Part shown: piece after piece, positions 26,543 to 31,902 of the stretch
Layout: every line of letters begins with the position of its first letter
Numbering within the stretch: position 1 is the stretch's first letter
Source of the DNA: Escherichia coli
GTDB lineage: Bacteria > Pseudomonadota > Gammaproteobacteria > Enterobacterales > Enterobacteriaceae
DNA: 64,000 nt
Assembly (NCBI RefSeq): GCF_050320075.1
Contig: NZ_CP190022.1
Reading direction: 5' to 3' (one strand)
Made by a program: the position numbers and the translations under genes
The notes under the pieces: generated by a model
The model's database searches: none
What the model saw: the letters and a program-made list of their open reading frames with translations, nothing else
What the model was told of the DNA's origin: nothing

Positions 26543-26734
26543 GGGGATTCCTCCATAGATGAATGGATAAATTTCGGGATTAAGTCGGGTGGCATGAATG
26601 CGAATCAGCGCCGGTAATAACCGGACAGGAATGAGTTCAACAGGACATTTTCACAGAGAAGAGCGTGGGAGACAGGTACAAAAAAACCGACTGGTGAGGC
26701 CGGTTTTTTTGCGATTCCGGGGTGGAGTTGGTGG

Positions 26735-26766
26735 CTCTGACCGGAGGAAGTCTCTTTTCAACTAAC
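26735..26766 (+). repeat. Direct repeat A (about 32 bp, CTCTG-CCGGAGGAAGTCTCTTTTCA-CTAAC)
   Basis: Repeated with two mismatches at 26969-27000, 234 bp downstream. Confidence 0.8.
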
Positions 26767-26968
26767 GTTACCAGAATAGCGTTATATTCACCTGATCGCA
26801 ATCTGTCAGTTACAATCTATTATTCTGGGAGTAGCGATATCGCCTGAAACAAGTATAATCAGTAAGTTAGCCTTGTCTGGAGACTTACCTTCGCATCAAT
26901 CCATCGGGACTATGGATCTGTGCTATTCAAAGACCTGGCCGGACAAACAGGTGGTGCTGTGTCTGGTG

Positions 26969-27000
26969 CTCTGGCCGGAGGAAGTCTCTTTTCAGCTAAC
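26969..27000 (+). repeat. Direct repeat B (copy of 26735-26766), 70 bp upstream of the small toxin-like ORF
   Basis: See repeat A. Confidence 0.8.
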
Positions 27001-27071
27001 AATGAGAGAGCTGTTGTGACAGGCAATGTAAGAGTAAGCAGCAGTGATTTCCTCCATTGACGGAGAAACGG

Positions 27072-27167
27072 ATGATTAACCTGTTAATCATCGTTCTCAG
27101 GGCAGTTGTTGCTGTGGTCAATGCAGTGATAGCAATCCTGGAACTGATCCGGGAGCTTATTGACTGA
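27072..27167 (+). CDS. Small hydrophobic peptide (31 aa, MINLLIIVLRAVVAVVNAVIAILELIRELID), TisB/DinQ/ZorO-like type I toxin candidate
   Basis: Not in the 60-aa ORF track; found by reading the intergenic DNA: GGAG 6 nt upstream of ATG 27072, single predicted TM helix, C-terminal ELIR motif as in DinQ; an upstream TTTCCTCC (27048-27055) can pair with the SD. Confidence 0.4.
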   Translation: MINLLIIVLRAVVAVVNAVIAILELIRELID

Positions 27168-27556
27168 TAATCCCGGAAACGTACTTAAGGGCAGCGGGTA
27201 ACCGCCCTCTGCCCTTTAACAAAATATGCTCAGGTTAAAAATCGAAAACCTTCCTGCACTTCCTGCGCCTGTTCCCGTGAGTCAAACATGAGCCGGCTTT
27301 TCCCCGGAACTCCCCAGGAAATATATTCTACATCCACCCACCATTTTCCGTATTCTTCATACGGTCCGGATATCACTTTAGTGACAAATGCATCAACCAG
27401 GTTCATTTTTACACCTTTCTGTTATTCTGCTTATTACGGCCAGCAAACAGCAAATATTAAAAATAACGCGGCGGTAAAAATGGCAATTTTTTCCCATACT
27501 GTATTTTTTCCATTTATTTGCTTTGAAATGTTTTTTTGCTTCATATCAGTAAATGA

Positions 27557-28187: not shown

Positions 28188-28811
28188 ATGCAGGAACATA
28201 TTGATTATCAGATTGAGAAATATCAGTTCAGGGCCAGGAATGAGTCTCCGCGACTGATGCGCCAGTGGGCAGATGTCATGCGTGAATGCCGTGATACCGG
28301 AGCAGGAGCCAGGGAGCGGCTGCGGATTGCCTTACTTAATGTTGATTATGTGACCAGTTTTGAGCTGCCGTTTCGTCTGCTGTTAACCCGGACACCGCAG
28401 ATGATTGACAGCATGCGGCGGGAATGGCAGCTCAGCCAGAAAAAAGTCGTCTTCAATGAGCGGCAGCGGGGATGTGTATACAGTCTGCAGAATGACTTAT
28501 CCGGCGTGCCGGATAGCTTCAGTTACAGTCTTGCGACGCGAATACGGCGGATGGACTGCTATGGCATGACGACGCGTTGTTTTACTGATATCGCCGGGCA
28601 GGTTAAAGCCCCGACGGCACGGCTGAAACTAGCGCTGGAAAGCGGGTTGCTGGTAACGGCACTGGATGGCCTGTTCTGGCTGGGAACTCAGCGAATTGCA
28701 GCTGATGTGCAGAGACTGCGTCAGTCAGGTATGGTTATAGTCACCCGGGAAGTTGAGGTATCAGACTCCCTGACCGGAACCACCAGACTGGTTTCTGCCT
28801 ACACACTTTAA
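28188..28811 (+). CDS. Hypothetical protein (207 aa)
   Basis: First of three same-strand ORFs in an AT-rich block; no family recognised. Confidence 0.5.
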   Translation: MQEHIDYQIEKYQFRARNESPRLMRQWADVMRECRDTGAGARERLRIALLNVDYVTSFELPFRLLLTRTPQMIDSMRREWQLSQKKVVFNERQRGCVYSLQNDLSGVPDSFSYSLATRIRRMDCYGMTTRCFTDIAGQVKAPTARLKLALESGLLVTALDGLFWLGTQRIAADVQRLRQSGMVIVTREVEVSDSLTGTTRLVSAYTL

Positions 28812-29532: not shown

Positions 29533-31089
29533 TTGTACAGGAAAATGACTGGCGTGTCTTGTATTAAAGAAAAATCAAAATATACTTTTGAGAGAGCAAA
29601 ACAGTTTTATTTTATGTTGTGGTGTAAAGAGTCACTGATTTATCTGTTGTTTTCTGTGCTTGTTACATGGTGTTGCGGATATACAGTGAAAAACACCCTG
29701 GGGAATGTGCTTATATTGTTCCTGATGTTGTTGTTGGGGCGGCAGAATGTTATTTCAGCAACGTGTGTCTGTATCTTTCTTTTGTTAAGTGCATTCTATG
29801 CTCCGGTTGGGATGATTTACGGAAAAATAAACAACAGTTTTATTGCGTCTGTAATGCAGACAAATCTAAATGAGGCAGGTGAATTTATCACAGGCATACC
29901 TGTTCTTTATTTTATTGTTTCACTGATTATTGCTGCTTTTACATTCTGGTTCTGGCGTAAGCGTGATAAAAGCCACCAGGGATTTATCTTTCTGTTGTTC
30001 TTTATCGTATTGTCAGTAAATGCATGGCCAAAACGTATGGTTACGAATGTAATGACAGGGATAGCTGAAACCAGAGAAGAAATGATGCGATATGAATCGC
30101 TGAAACACAATCAGAAAGATTCATGGGATATTGTGAATGTGGAGAAGAAATATAAAACCATAATTATCGTAATTGGTGAAAGTGTCAGACGGGATTATCT
30201 TTCTGTTTATGGGTATCCTTTGCCGACAACACCATGGTTGAATTCTGCTCCGGGTATATTTATTAATGGGTATTTCTCCGCAGCTCCGAATACGATAGGT
30301 TCACTCAGCAGAACACTGACTCTTGATTACACTGAAACAGGTAATCCGGGTAATAATATTGTTACGCTTGCCAGAAAAGCCGGATATGAGACGTGGTGGA
30401 TATCAAATCAGGGCTCTTTAGGGCGACATGATACGCTGATTTCTGTCATCGCCGCCAATGCGGATAAGAAATATTTTCTTAAGGAAGGGAGCTCTTCTTC
30501 CCGTCGCATTGATGATGAAGATATGCTTCAGTATGTCAGGGAAGCTGTTAATTCGTCTTCTCCAAAAGTGATTTTCATTCATATGCTGGGGTCCCATCCT
30601 AATCCCTGTGACAGACTTTTTAATGATGCACAGCCGTTCAGGGAATTATTCGGAAATAAAGTATCCTGTTATTTATCAACATTGCTTAAGCTGGATCGGT
30701 TTCTTCAGGCAATTTATAACATGACGACAGAGCATGGCGATGATTTTGCCATGCTGTATTTTTCTGATCATGGGCAATCCGTCACTTCAGACAGCACCCC
30801 TGTGCATCATGCGCCAGGTTTGCGTTCGGGATACGATGTACCTCTCATGATGATGGCCAGTGATATTACTGAGCACCACCTCAATCATGTGCATATCAGT
30901 GCACGTCGTTTTCCCGAGATTTTTCAATGGATCACAGGGATACAAACCAAAAATCTGCCGTTAAGTTTTTCTTTGTTACAGAATGATTTCGCTGAAAGTG
31001 TTTCTGTATTCAATGGTGAACGTGACGTTCCGGTAATGTCTTTGCCAGAAGAGCCGATACTGACCGGAAATGCTGAATCAGAAAAATAA
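29533..31089 (+). CDS. Phosphoethanolamine-transferase-like membrane protein (N-terminal multi-TM domain + sulfatase/alkaline-phosphatase-type catalytic domain, EptA/MCR-like architecture)
   Basis: Five predicted N-terminal TM helices then sulfatase-type motifs (IIVIGESVRRDY, HMLGSHPNP, YFSDHGQS); alternative start at ATG 29545. Confidence 0.65.
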   Translation: MYRKMTGVSCIKEKSKYTFERAKQFYFMLWCKESLIYLLFSVLVTWCCGYTVKNTLGNVLILFLMLLLGRQNVISATCVCIFLLLSAFYAPVGMIYGKINNSFIASVMQTNLNEAGEFITGIPVLYFIVSLIIAAFTFWFWRKRDKSHQGFIFLLFFIVLSVNAWPKRMVTNVMTGIAETREEMMRYESLKHNQKDSWDIVNVEKKYKTIIIVIGESVRRDYLSVYGYPLPTTPWLNSAPGIFINGYFSAAPNTIGSLSRTLTLDYTETGNPGNNIVTLARKAGYETWWISNQGSLGRHDTLISVIAANADKKYFLKEGSSSSRRIDDEDMLQYVREAVNSSSPKVIFIHMLGSHPNPCDRLFNDAQPFRELFGNKVSCYLSTLLKLDRFLQAIYNMTTEHGDDFAMLYFSDHGQSVTSDSTPVHHAPGLRSGYDVPLMMMASDITEHHLNHVHISARRFPEIFQWITGIQTKNLPLSFSLLQNDFAESVSVFNGERDVPVMSLPEEPILTGNAESEK

Positions 31090-31424: not shown

Positions 31425-31608
31425 AGTATTTCCTTCCAGGTCATTATTACTTCCAGATTTAACATGATGTCTGTAACCATAAAATAATGAACGTGTTCCG
31501 GGAATCCTTGCCGTGTAGTTTCCCGTAAAAATACTGTTGTGCATTACATGTCATTAGGTGGAAACCGATTGTGGCAGACTGAAAATCGATTAGAATAGCG
31601 GCGGGCGC

Positions 31609-31902
31609 TTGAGGCTGTATGCTGAAAGCGTTTTGTGGACGGCATGCAGCAGAAAGCCCCAGGCGATTTTTTTATCAATCAACCCAGGGCCCACTGTAAT
31701 GCCTCAACAACATTATAGTAGCCCGATGACGGCCGAAAGGCAATGGAGGGGCTGCGATGCCACAACGAACGTTTTTAATAATGTTAATCGTCGTCTGTGT
31801 GACGATACTGTGTTTTGTCTGGATGGTGAGGGATTCGCTTTGCGGATTTCGTATCGAGCAGGGAAATACAGTGCTTGTGGCAACGTTAGCCTACGAAGTT
31901 AA
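31609..31902 (+). CDS. pndC: Overlapping translational-coupling reading frame of the hok-family module (mok/PndC-like)
   Basis: 97-codon ORF overlapping the toxin ORF in another frame, as in hok/mok and pndA/pndC. Confidence 0.55.
   Translation: MRLYAESVLWTACSRKPQAIFLSINPGPTVMPQQHYSSPMTAERQWRGCDATTNVFNNVNRRLCDDTVFCLDGEGFALRISYRAGKYSACGNVSLRS

Follow-up and report, generated by a model that had tools for sequence, protein, structure and literature searches.

The segment of about 0.9 kb between trbA and nuc, in the transfer region of an Escherichia coli plasmid, raises the question of what is encoded where no open reading frame (ORF) had been tracked. The initial annotation saw here a short membrane-peptide ORF, a leader able to sequester its ribosome-binding site and a pair of direct repeats, and described a type I toxin-like locus with a DinQ-like membrane peptide. 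We have examined this segment within a window of 64,000 nucleotides, the whole stretch of DNA analysed, to which all coordinates refer; every element described was found where it had been placed or no more than one base away. The locus is very probably a plasmid-borne DqlB/AgrB type I toxin-antitoxin module of the post-segregational killing type, a relative of the E. coli chromosomal dinQ-agrB locus. The system is already known, being named, annotated in RefSeq and experimentally demonstrated on related resistance plasmids: the dql family received its name in 2016 (PMC5066626) and the plasmid form of DqlB-AgrB was validated in 2025 (PMC12365149, PMC12317039), so the suggestion that the locus is a not-yet-known system does not hold.

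The putative toxin gene and its setting

The gene at the centre of the locus is a single short ORF:

27072–27167, + strand: dqlB ORF, encoding a 31-residue putative toxin with a single predicted transmembrane helix (assigned from NF041473, RefSeq WP_001443691.1 and pN/pS)

Its 31 codons translate as MINLLIIVLRAVVAVVNAVIAILELIRELID, in agreement with the ORF originally reported. The peptide matches the NCBIfam model NF041473, "DinQ-like type I toxin DqlB", with 65.3 bits over residues 1–31 of 31 (this is a curated equivalog model with a cutoff of 35 bits), and an identical peptide sequence in RefSeq, WP_001443691.1, is annotated as dqlB; the identification as a type I toxin-like locus with a DinQ-like peptide is thus borne out. 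With the DinQ equivalog model NF041472 the peptide scores 20.1 bits, short of the 30 needed, which leaves it outside DinQ proper. The NCBIfam search of the peptide returned the DqlB and DinQ models only, with no match to Hok, TisB or ZorO; of the likenesses proposed earlier, that to DinQ therefore stands, and those to TisB and ZorO are generic only. A single transmembrane helix is indeed predicted, with a GRAVY of 2.00 and a mean Kyte-Doolittle value of 2.83 in the best 19-residue window (residues 5–23), and the LELIR motif is invariant among the plasmid homologues (19/19). The ORF is kept across the IncI, K, X1, X3, X4, X5, L/M, N, P and F groups, and it evolves under purifying selection, with a pN/pS of 0.16 and a variability of 0.098, 0.019 and 0.26 at the three codon positions.

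Over the stretch, a RefSeq plasmid with an IncK2/Z replicon shows 100% identity, and dqlB is annotated there. The same record also has a 58-residue hypothetical ORF at 27230–27406 on the − strand, so the trbA-nuc interval, while of about the length reported and lacking tracked ORFs, is not gene-free; an NCBIfam search of this ORF and of a neighbouring 36-residue ORF gave no match. The locus has matches in at least 5000 plasmid records, and dqlB is annotated in most among the matches listed. PGAP annotation calls dqlB routinely. Elsewhere on the plasmid there is a hok-family module, as had been noted, with an Rfam sok match at 31603–31759 (123.7 bits) and a Hok/Gef coding sequence annotated in the identical RefSeq record. 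This pnd (hok/sok-type) module shares neither peptide nor RNA family with dqlB/agrB, making the latter a second, different small-toxin system.

A divergent AgrB-like RNA complementary to the dqlB leader

The region upstream of dqlB contains the following features:

26678–26766, − strand: AgrB-like antitoxin small RNA of about 88 nt (Rfam RF02891; alignment with K-12 agrA/agrB)
26679–26711, − strand: small RNA terminator hairpin, a perfect 11-bp inverted repeat CAAAAAAACCG/CGGTTTTTTTG (terminator-like site in a scan, inside the terminator stem of the AgrB model)
26734–26766, no strand assigned: direct-repeat copy 1, which read on the opposite strand gives the antisense 5′ part of the small RNA
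26968–27000, + strand: direct-repeat copy 2, the small RNA target in the dqlB 5′ leader, with the core GGAGGAAGTCTC (26977–26988) forming element 2 of the leader

The Rfam AgrB model RF02891, which has a gathering score of 40 bits, matches from 26765 to 26678 on the − strand with 52.8 bits over the full model (1–84). The match lies on the strand opposite the toxin, does not overlap it and is located 306 nt upstream of the dqlB ATG. The RNA can be aligned with K-12 agrA/agrB and 15 plasmid homologues, and its layout comprises a 5′ antisense determinant of 33 nt, then a stem-loop, then an intrinsic terminator. A hairpin ending a minus-strand small RNA had been predicted at 26680–26710, and the AgrB-family RNA does run into the inverted repeat at 26679–26711; with its A-run and T-run this terminator looks bidirectional. 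The Rfam OrzO-P model also scored on the locus, at 30.8 bits relative to a threshold of 60, and covered the terminator hairpin alone.

The direct repeats had been described as near-identical copies of 32 bp; they are present, and the start-to-start distance of 234 nt is as reported, but they are 33 nt long (26734–26766 and 26968–27000) with two mismatches. A comparable repeat pair appears in none of 100 dinucleotide-preserving shuffles of the window. The 234-nt spacer had been suggested as a possible source of an antisense or decoy RNA; the antisense RNA is instead a minus-strand transcript across the upstream repeat copy itself, and the spacer would contain the beginning of the dqlB leader (~100 nt) and both promoters, arranged back to back. 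Over its 5′-terminal 33 nt the small RNA is complementary to the downstream repeat in 33 contiguous pairs, 31 of them Watson-Crick and two G·U, as determined by explicit pairing of these 33 nt, since RNAduplex applied to the complete RNAs gave inflated, unrealistic structures.

This complementarity is maintained as the sequences diverge. Among 17 loci, small RNA and target share 85% identity when cognate and 57% when not, and 16 of the 17 small RNAs have their cognate target as best match, alone or tied; the observed mean is reached in none of 10000 permutations, a figure which, like the other shuffle statistics for the compared loci, overstates independence because those loci are related. The mismatches between small RNA and target are skewed towards G·U-compatible changes (21, versus seven opposite transitions and six transversions). 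We note that the co-variation of the repeat copies could stem in part from gene conversion between direct repeats, not from selection on RNA pairing.

A predicted switch in the dqlB leader

Nucleotide homology to dinQ extends over the whole transcript (257 identical positions in 437 columns), and the features of the predicted dqlB mRNA and of the two candidate promoters are as follows:

26773–26801, − strand: putative small RNA promoter, −35 TTGCGA (26801–26796), 17-nt spacer, −10 TATTCT (26778–26773), start at G26766/U26765 (conserved columns)
26854–26859, + strand: putative dqlB promoter −10 TATAAT, with a poor −35 and without a LexA operator (aligns with the dinQ −10 region)
26866–27222, + strand: predicted dqlB mRNA of about 357 nt, with +1 placed at G26866 of GTTAGC by alignment with the mapped dinQ +1 (GTTAGC)
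26879–26892, + strand: element 1, the 5′ lock GGAGACTTACCTTC, predicted to pair with element 2 in the full-length transcript (minimum-energy fold of 26866–27222)
27046–27055, + strand: element 3, the anti-Shine-Dalgarno (anti-SD) sequence GATTTCCTCC, predicted to pair with element 2 or the SD (folds, covariation)
27062–27065, + strand: Shine-Dalgarno (SD) GGAG, element 4, 6 nt before the ATG
27071–27092, + strand: start-codon hairpin of 9 bp, GAUGAUUAA/UUAAUCAUC, enclosing the AUG (inverted repeat, fold)
27187–27216, + strand: 3′ stem-loop/terminator of the dqlB mRNA, AAGGGCAG...CTGCCCTT followed by TAAC (inverted repeat; homologous to the dinQ terminator)

The promoter assignments come from alignment with the dinQ start, using published nucleotide numbering, and from conservation. 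A TTGCA-type −35 and a TAnnnT −10 are conserved columns in the small RNA alignment, and a TATAAT-type box (TATAAT, TATACT or TATGAT) occupies the dqlB −10 position in 17 of the 20 aligned loci. A consensus promoter scan recovered neither of the two promoters, both of which are weak by consensus (the small RNA promoter has 8 of 12 matches), and it flagged other sites, at 26787–26816 on the + strand and 26879–26852 on the − strand.

The leader holds all four elements of the published dinQ switch, which was described together with the dql family (PMC5066626) and involves the pairings 1:2, 2:3 and 3:4, the last being anti-SD with SD. The initial annotation had placed GGAG 6 nt before the ATG, which is its location, and had proposed that the upstream sequence TTTCCTCC (27048–27055) pairs with it; C27052–C27055 are indeed predicted to pair with G27062–G27065 when the full-length leader is folded. 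The full-length RNA is predicted to contain 1:2 and 3:4, the truncated RNA 2:3, and the RNA in which the target is blocked 3:4 again, with predicted SD-opening energies of 5.7, 3.6 and 6.0 kcal/mol respectively; K-12 dinQ shows the same trend (3.9, 3.5 and 5.9 kcal/mol). The predicted gain in SD accessibility is only about 2.1–2.4 kcal/mol, and in the truncated-RNA fold the SD is weakly paired with CUCUG at 26969–26973, with an unpaired probability of at most 0.09, so that it is not fully free.

Comparison across 20 loci backs each of the three helices, with an observed covariation score reached by no shuffle. The core 1:2 helix has changes on both sides in 10 of its 11 pairs, and the 2:3 helix in 6 of 10 with 85.5% of cells paired; in the 3:4 helix 92.5% of cells are paired, and in the start-codon hairpin 99.4%. 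The stem-loop of the 3′ terminator is likewise conserved in the leader/ORF alignment, with compensating changes. Folding and covariation together support a leader in which 1:2, 2:3 and 3:4 may form as mutually exclusive helices.

By homology with dinQ, the locus would be expected to operate as follows. Two divergent promoters about 100 bp apart would yield the dqlB mRNA (+ strand, from about 26866) and the AgrB-like small RNA of about 88 nt (− strand, 26766 to 26678). The primary dqlB transcript would be untranslatable, with the 1:2 pairing leaving element 3 free to hold the SD and the separate 9-bp hairpin lying over the AUG. Removal of the 5′ end, by a cut that alignment with dinQ +44 would place near 26924, would free element 2 to capture the anti-SD and make the SD more accessible. 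Base pairing between the 33-nt antisense determinant of the small RNA and the element 2 repeat would return the anti-SD to the SD, and the long duplex of small RNA and mRNA would likely be cleaved by RNase III. As long as the plasmid is retained, the small RNA would hold DqlB off; on plasmid loss the labile small RNA would decay, the processed mRNA would be translated, and the 31-residue peptide would enter the inner membrane and kill or arrest the cell.

Alternative interpretations

The homology to dinQ along the whole transcript suggests that dqlB might, like chromosomal dinQ, be an SOS-inducible, LexA-repressed stress toxin and not a constitutive addiction module. In the IncI1 plasmid pTF2 a LexA site has been predicted 119 nt upstream of dqlB, with a heterology index of 11.64 (PMC12211044), and the equivalent CTG-N10-CAG in the window is at 26935–26950. 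However, this sequence is the sole CTG-N10-CAG in 26600–27250, it is found at +70 within a leader stem that is conserved, and because the motif occurs at 0.81 per kb in the window a single occurrence is about what chance provides. No LexA operator is present at the dqlB promoter: the position of the dinQ operator (TACTGTATGATTATCCAGTT, over the −10 and +1) aligns to ACAAGTATAATCAGTAAGTT, which is CTG-N13-CAG together with a perfect TATAAT, and not a LexA box. DqlB also went undetected in the proteome analysis of pTF2 (PMC12211044), and the plasmid homologues that have been tested act as addiction modules. We therefore regard SOS control as improbable, and the lack of a LexA box at the promoter fits a constitutive plasmid-addiction module. 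Somewhat less improbable, though still unlikely, is that the RNA module works as described and serves a role other than segregational stability, such as anti-phage abortive infection or plasmid competition. The presence of pnd/sok for addiction, the trbA-nuc position of the locus within the transfer region, and the diversification of recognition sequences between plasmid groups could all be read in this way, but pOXA-48 also has PemIK and DqlB-AgrB is nonetheless a major addiction module there (PMC12365149), and no phage sensor is indicated by the sequence.

Two further readings question whether dqlB is the relevant gene. We think it very improbable that the true gene is the 46-residue leader ORF (26920–27060), or a 36-residue form starting at TTG 27057, with the repeats encoding a duplicated motif AL[AT]GGSLFS. 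The 46-residue ORF does span the target repeat, some RefSeq plasmids carry a hypothetical-protein annotation in this frame (WP_001346191.1 in one of them), and the leader frame is open into dqlB in several loci; but no leader frame shows codon periodicity (0.17/0.22/0.21, versus 0.098/0.019/0.26 for the dqlB ORF), the indels in the anti-SD-SD region are not multiples of three, and the variation in the leader is compensatory at the RNA level. As to the 36-residue form, its TTG is upstream of the SD and the NCBIfam model covers exactly the 31-residue form, and in dinQ the product is a 27-residue peptide made from a processed transcript despite an earlier predicted 49-residue ORF (PMC3567139). 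From this comparison it would seem that the RefSeq "hypothetical protein" annotation of the dqlB leader is spurious in at least one case. A functionless locus, with a chance ORF and with repeats persisting as neutral traces of a duplication, is least credible of all and can practically be dismissed: only the small size of the ORF speaks for it, and it is refuted by family models above threshold, conservation across multiple Inc groups, a pN/pS of 0.16 and compensatory RNA changes. We also considered a polymorphic-toxin or bacteriocin C-terminal module with a small immunity peptide, prompted by the Gly/Ala-rich translation of the repeat (ALAGGSLFSANN), and dropped it because the Rfam and NCBIfam matches and the RNA covariation explain the repeat.

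Relation to known toxin-antitoxin systems

A DqlB/AgrB addiction module has close counterparts on other plasmids. For pOXA-48 (IncL), DqlB toxicity, rescue by AgrB and addiction function have all been shown, and dqlB is reported in 83.2% of IncB/O/K/Z plasmids (PMC12365149), the group into which the IncK2/Z replicon of the window falls; for pOXA-484 (IncX3), toxicity that the complete locus relieves has been reported, together with improved plasmid stability (PMC12317039). The window shares with these two systems the peptide family MINLLI[IV]VLRAV.A..NA[LV]IA[IV]LELIR...., a divergent AgrB small RNA with complementarity to the dqlB 5′ leader over its 5′ ~33–35 nt, and the leader elements, start-codon hairpin and terminator. 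The flanking genes differ, being trbA and nuc in the window and repA and trbC in pOXA-48, and so does the recognition sequence, which is GGAGGAAGTCTCTTTTCAGCTAAC in the window and ...GGGAACATCTAAACAATTGAC in pOXA-48, with 12–13 of 30 positions identical; cross-neutralisation between the two is therefore unlikely. The small RNAs of IncL/M, IncN and IncP plasmids are too divergent to reach E ≤ 0.1 with the Rfam AgrB model, whereas that of the window matches it.

The K-12 dinQ-agrAB locus (PMC3567139, PMC5066626; NF041472, RF02891) likewise has toxin and small RNA genes in divergent orientation, antisense complementarity of about 31–33 nt located in the 5′ leader about 105 nt before the start codon, a four-element switch, a start-codon hairpin and a homologous terminator. 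DinQ and the window peptide are 59% identical in a 17-residue local alignment that includes LELIR, but DinQ has 27 residues and a GTG start, and the window peptide 31 residues and an ATG start. There are two small RNA genes in K-12 (agrA and agrB) and one in the window; K-12 dinQ has a LexA box at its promoter, whereas the corresponding window promoter has a perfect TATAAT −10 and no LexA operator; and dinQ is a chromosomal gene of the SOS response, whereas the window locus is plasmid-borne, presumably with a role in addiction. We judge cross-talk with chromosomal dinQ to be unlikely, as only 13 contiguous nucleotides would pair; K-12 AgrA, which has few mismatches from AgrB and matches about 18 contiguous nt of the dinQ target, fails to repress +44 dinQ (PMC5066626).

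The hok/sok (pnd) module of the same plasmid also combines a membrane toxin, an antisense RNA and an mRNA needing processing in post-segregational killing. However, Sok overlaps its target gene as a cis-antisense RNA and hok is activated by 3′ trimming, whereas the gene for AgrB is separate from its target gene and AgrB acts via a repeated sequence, with activation probably by removal of the 5′ end, as homology with dinQ indicates. The tisB-istR1 and zorO-orzO systems follow the same general logic, with a divergent small RNA, a long processed 5′ leader and a small helical membrane toxin, but have no sequence-family match to the window locus.

Recognition-sequence diversity and implications

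The value of the assignment is practical and not conceptual, as the understanding of type I systems is unchanged. With dqlB/agrB in addition to pnd (hok/sok-type), the IncK2/Z plasmid would hold two type I addiction modules independent of each other, which would help to explain the persistence of resistance plasmids and would be relevant to plasmid-curing strategies. ORF pipelines that ignore genes of fewer than 50 codons and small RNA genes miss the dqlB/agrB module.

In the leader, which is otherwise conserved, variability peaks in the recognition core and in elements 1 and 3, which have to co-vary with the core. We tentatively suggest, as a possibility about which we are more doubtful than confident, that these segments are under diversifying selection that gives each plasmid lineage a private, orthogonal antitoxin specificity; the much greater likeness of cognate than of non-cognate pairs would be compatible with this. 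If this is so, the AgrB of a co-resident or competing plasmid, or of the chromosome, could not neutralise the toxin of the lineage, and tandem loci with the same toxin and different recognition sequences would represent intermediates in specificity switching via recombination between repeats. NZ_OW969692.1 offers an example of such tandem loci, with a recognition sequence of the window type in one and of the I-gamma/K1 type in the other.

A dqlB toxin gene and its AgrB-family small RNA

The interval between trbA and nuc contains the open reading frame that led the initial annotation to suggest a type I toxin-like locus. It lies at 27072–27167 (+) and encodes the 31-aa peptide MINLLIIVLRAVVAVVNAVIAILELIRELID, with GGAG at 27062–27065, 6 nt 5′ of the ATG, and the anti-Shine-Dalgarno (anti-SD) sequence TTTCCTCC at 27048–27055, both as described there. 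Positions 26543–27229 match NZ_MG825371.1 with 100% identity. That record is a conjugative IncK2/Z plasmid of E. coli whose relaxase is MOBP and whose transfer system is MPF_I, and in it RefSeq labels exactly this ORF "dqlB: DinQ-like type I toxin DqlB". Against NCBIfam NF041473 (cutoff 35) the peptide reaches 65.3 bits, and against the NCBIfam DinQ model only 20.1 bits, under its cutoff of 30.

The near-identical direct repeats flanking a spacer are likewise real, being 33 nt long with two mismatches (26734–26766 and 26968–27000), and none of 100 dinucleotide-preserving shuffles of the window yields a comparable pair; at 26679–26711 a perfect 11-bp inverted repeat makes up the proposed A-run/T-run hairpin. 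Rfam RF02891 (AgrB) matches on the minus strand at 26765–26678 (52.8 bits, gathering score 40), over the full model, bearing out the suggested minus-strand small RNA ending at that hairpin. This RNA begins where the upstream repeat copy has its outer end, crosses that copy and ends in the hairpin; the direct repeat is therefore the footprint that an antisense pair leaves in the DNA. The 5′ 33 nt of the small RNA could form 33 contiguous pairs (31 Watson-Crick, two G·U) with the dqlB leader at 26968–27000. An antisense RNA linked to the repeats is thus encoded, but its minus-strand gene spans the upstream repeat and does not lie in the spacer, the only real correction needed to the earlier interpretation. 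Together, the DqlB peptide and the AgrB-family RNA, each recognized by family models, support the type I toxin reading.

The locus belongs to the DqlB/AgrB family, with every computationally testable defining feature present. The system is already known: its name dates from 2016, PGAP has annotated it since a recent RefSeq update, and its validation on plasmids came in 2025. For pOXA-48, DqlB toxicity, AgrB rescue and killing on plasmid loss have been demonstrated, and dqlB is carried by 83.2% of IncB/O/K/Z and 67.4% of IncI1 plasmids (PMC12365149); work on the pOXA-484 locus demonstrated toxicity, its rescue by the complete locus, and improved plasmid stability (PMC12317039). DinQ itself depolarizes the inner membrane and decreases ATP (PMC3567139).

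A predicted dinQ-type leader switch

In dinQ, the helices formed among leader elements 1 to 4 exclude one another: the primary transcript adopts 1:2 and 3:4, sequestering the SD, and is untranslated; removal of the first 44 nt allows 2:3 to form and the SD to open; and AgrB binding to element 2 returns element 3 to the SD, blocking translation and triggering RNase III cleavage (Kristiansen et al., PMC5066626). All four elements are found in the window.

Elements of the dqlB 5′ leader
26879–26892, element 1, 5′ lock sequence
26977–26988, element 2, within the repeat
27046–27055, element 3, anti-SD
27062–27065, element 4, SD (GGAG)

The predicted minimum-energy folds reproduce the dinQ model, with 1:2 plus 3:4 in the full-length dqlB RNA, 2:3 in the RNA truncated at 26924, and 3:4 again when 26968–27000 is blocked. 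Opening the SD has an ensemble cost of 5.7, 3.6 and 6.0 kcal/mol in these three states, compared with 3.9, 3.5 and 5.9 kcal/mol for K-12 dinQ; the SD remains weakly paired with CUCUG (26969–26973) in the truncated fold, and the predicted gain in accessibility is therefore modest. Covariation in a 20-sequence alignment also supports the switch: both-sided changes occur in 10/11 pairs of the core 1:2 helix and 6/10 pairs of the 2:3 helix, 85.5% of cells are paired in 2:3 and 92.5% in 3:4, no shuffle reaches the observed covariation score, and slid controls are lower. In the same alignment a 9-bp hairpin around the AUG (27071–27092) is paired in 99.4% of cells. The locus most likely works as dinQ does, with 1:2 and 3:4 holding it off, 5′ removal leading to 2:3, and AgrB restoring 3:4.

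We place the putative transcription starts and processing site by homology. The alignment to dinQ spans the whole transcript (257/437 columns identical), and the published dinQ +1 (GTTAGC) maps to G26866, just 3′ of a perfect TATAAT at 26854–26859; a simple consensus promoter scan recovered neither inferred promoter and flagged other sites instead. The K-12 LexA operator aligns in the window to a CTG-N13-CAG spacing, and the sole CTG-N10-CAG within 26600–27250 lies at 26935–26950, inside a conserved leader stem, with none at the promoter; one occurrence is in line with the background frequency of 0.81 per kb. From the lack of a LexA operator there we infer that dqlB transcription is probably constitutive, as an addiction module would have.

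As in K-12 dinQ-agrAB, the genes for toxin and small RNA diverge without overlapping, and the target is about 105 nt before the start codon. We reject an assignment to DinQ proper, given the sub-cutoff score, the missing LexA operator and the single small RNA gene, where DinQ has two. The suggested likeness to DinQ, TisB and ZorO toxins holds for a DinQ-like protein, DqlB; tisB, zorO and hok/sok have only general logic in common with the locus and are otherwise unrelated. A separate hok-family module is indeed present, with Rfam sok at 31603–31759 (123.7 bits) and a Hok/Gef CDS annotated in the identical RefSeq record.

The dqlB mRNA (26866–26892) and the small RNA (26766–26734, minus strand) share GUUAG as their first nucleotides and continue with a GAGACUU(A)CCU-type stretch, so that element 1 looks like a degenerate in-cis copy of the antisense region; the same likeness is seen between the 5′ lock of K-12 dinQ and agrB.

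Conservation and recognition specificity

Matches to the locus occur in at least 5000 PLSDB plasmids, 798 of them with ≥80% locus coverage, and we fetched 18 diverse loci (IncI1, I-gamma/K1, X1, X3, X4, X5, L/M, N, P and F groups). The peptide is near-invariant in all of them (MINLLI[IV]VLRAV.A..NA[LV]IA[IV]LELIR...), and synonymous divergence is high (pS 0.449, pN 0.073 and pN/pS 0.16 summed over pairs; variability by codon position 0.098/0.019/0.26). Rfam AgrB-family matches adjoin dqlB in I-complex, X-group and F-type (L010) plasmids, in pSS17 and in L005, whose replicon is untyped; for the L/M, N and P loci the alignment reveals an equivalent gene that has a TTGCA −35 and a terminator, both conserved, together with a TAnnnT −10 and a GTTAG/GTCAA start.

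The recognition sequence diverges strongly between lineages, yet both copies agree within each locus: cognate identity is 85% versus 57% for non-cognate pairs (30 nt, 17 loci), the cognate target is best or tied-best for 16/17 small RNAs, and 0/10000 permutations reach the observed cognate mean. Among the copy mismatches 21 keep G·U in the RNA duplex, against seven opposite transitions and six transversions, although the loci are related and these counts non-independent. Gene conversion could contribute to this co-variation. Another reading, that the core diversifies and so keeps the antitoxin private to each plasmid, is hinted at by the raised variability seen in the core and in elements 1 and 3, by the wide cognate/non-cognate gap, and by tandem loci pairing identical toxins with different recognition sequences; we consider it unlikely.

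One such tandem locus, L003 (NZ_OW969692.1, Citrobacter koseri, IncI1/B/O), carries two dqlB/agrB modules at 700–1950, between trbA and a 58-aa ORF, both encoding WP_001388983.1; small-RNA/target recognition is of the window type in copy a and of the I-gamma/K1 type in copy b. In L015 (1121–1860) a truncated dqlB copy (MMNLLIIVLRAVLAIANALIAIQKLIE*) precedes an intact one. Extra AgrB-family genes with no adjoining toxin ORF, resembling K-12 agrA, occur in L006 (74–156, minus strand; Rfam score 62.8 bits) and L014 (81–168 and 461–548, minus strand; 37.7 and 47.5 bits). They may be orphan or decoy antitoxins; in the window there is a single AgrB gene.

Neighboring reading frames

A 46-aa ORF in the leader (26920–27060, +) is annotated in one relative (L003, 904–1050) as the hypothetical protein WP_001346191.1. 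Its frame has no codon periodicity across 19 loci (0.17/0.22/0.21); we therefore reject it as a real gene, and the annotation is probably a false call over the structured leader.

Directly downstream of dqlB and convergent with it is a 58-aa hypothetical protein (WP_001054907.1; 27230–27406, −), variants of which are also found after dqlB in further plasmids of the I-complex (L013, L014) and for which a family search gave no match; the dqlB 3′ stem-loop may serve as a transcription terminator in both directions. A 36-aa ORF (MKQKNISKQINGKNTVWEKIAIFTAALFLIFAVCWP; 27434–27544, −), hydrophobic in its C-terminal half, begins 12 nt past the thermonuclease (nuc) stop; it is unannotated in the identical RefSeq record and has no NCBIfam match or obvious SD. 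The 511-aa protein at 29554–31089 (+), annotated as a phosphoethanolamine transferase, has as its best NCBIfam scores CptA 108 (cutoff 404), EptA 75 (561) and MCR-4 28.5 bits (1225); since all fall below cutoff, it is, judged by these models, a distant sulfatase-fold relative and no recognized mcr gene. The 207-aa 'DNA-binding protein' at 28188–28811 (+) matches the NCBIfam ECs1377 family (300.9 bits, cutoff 190).
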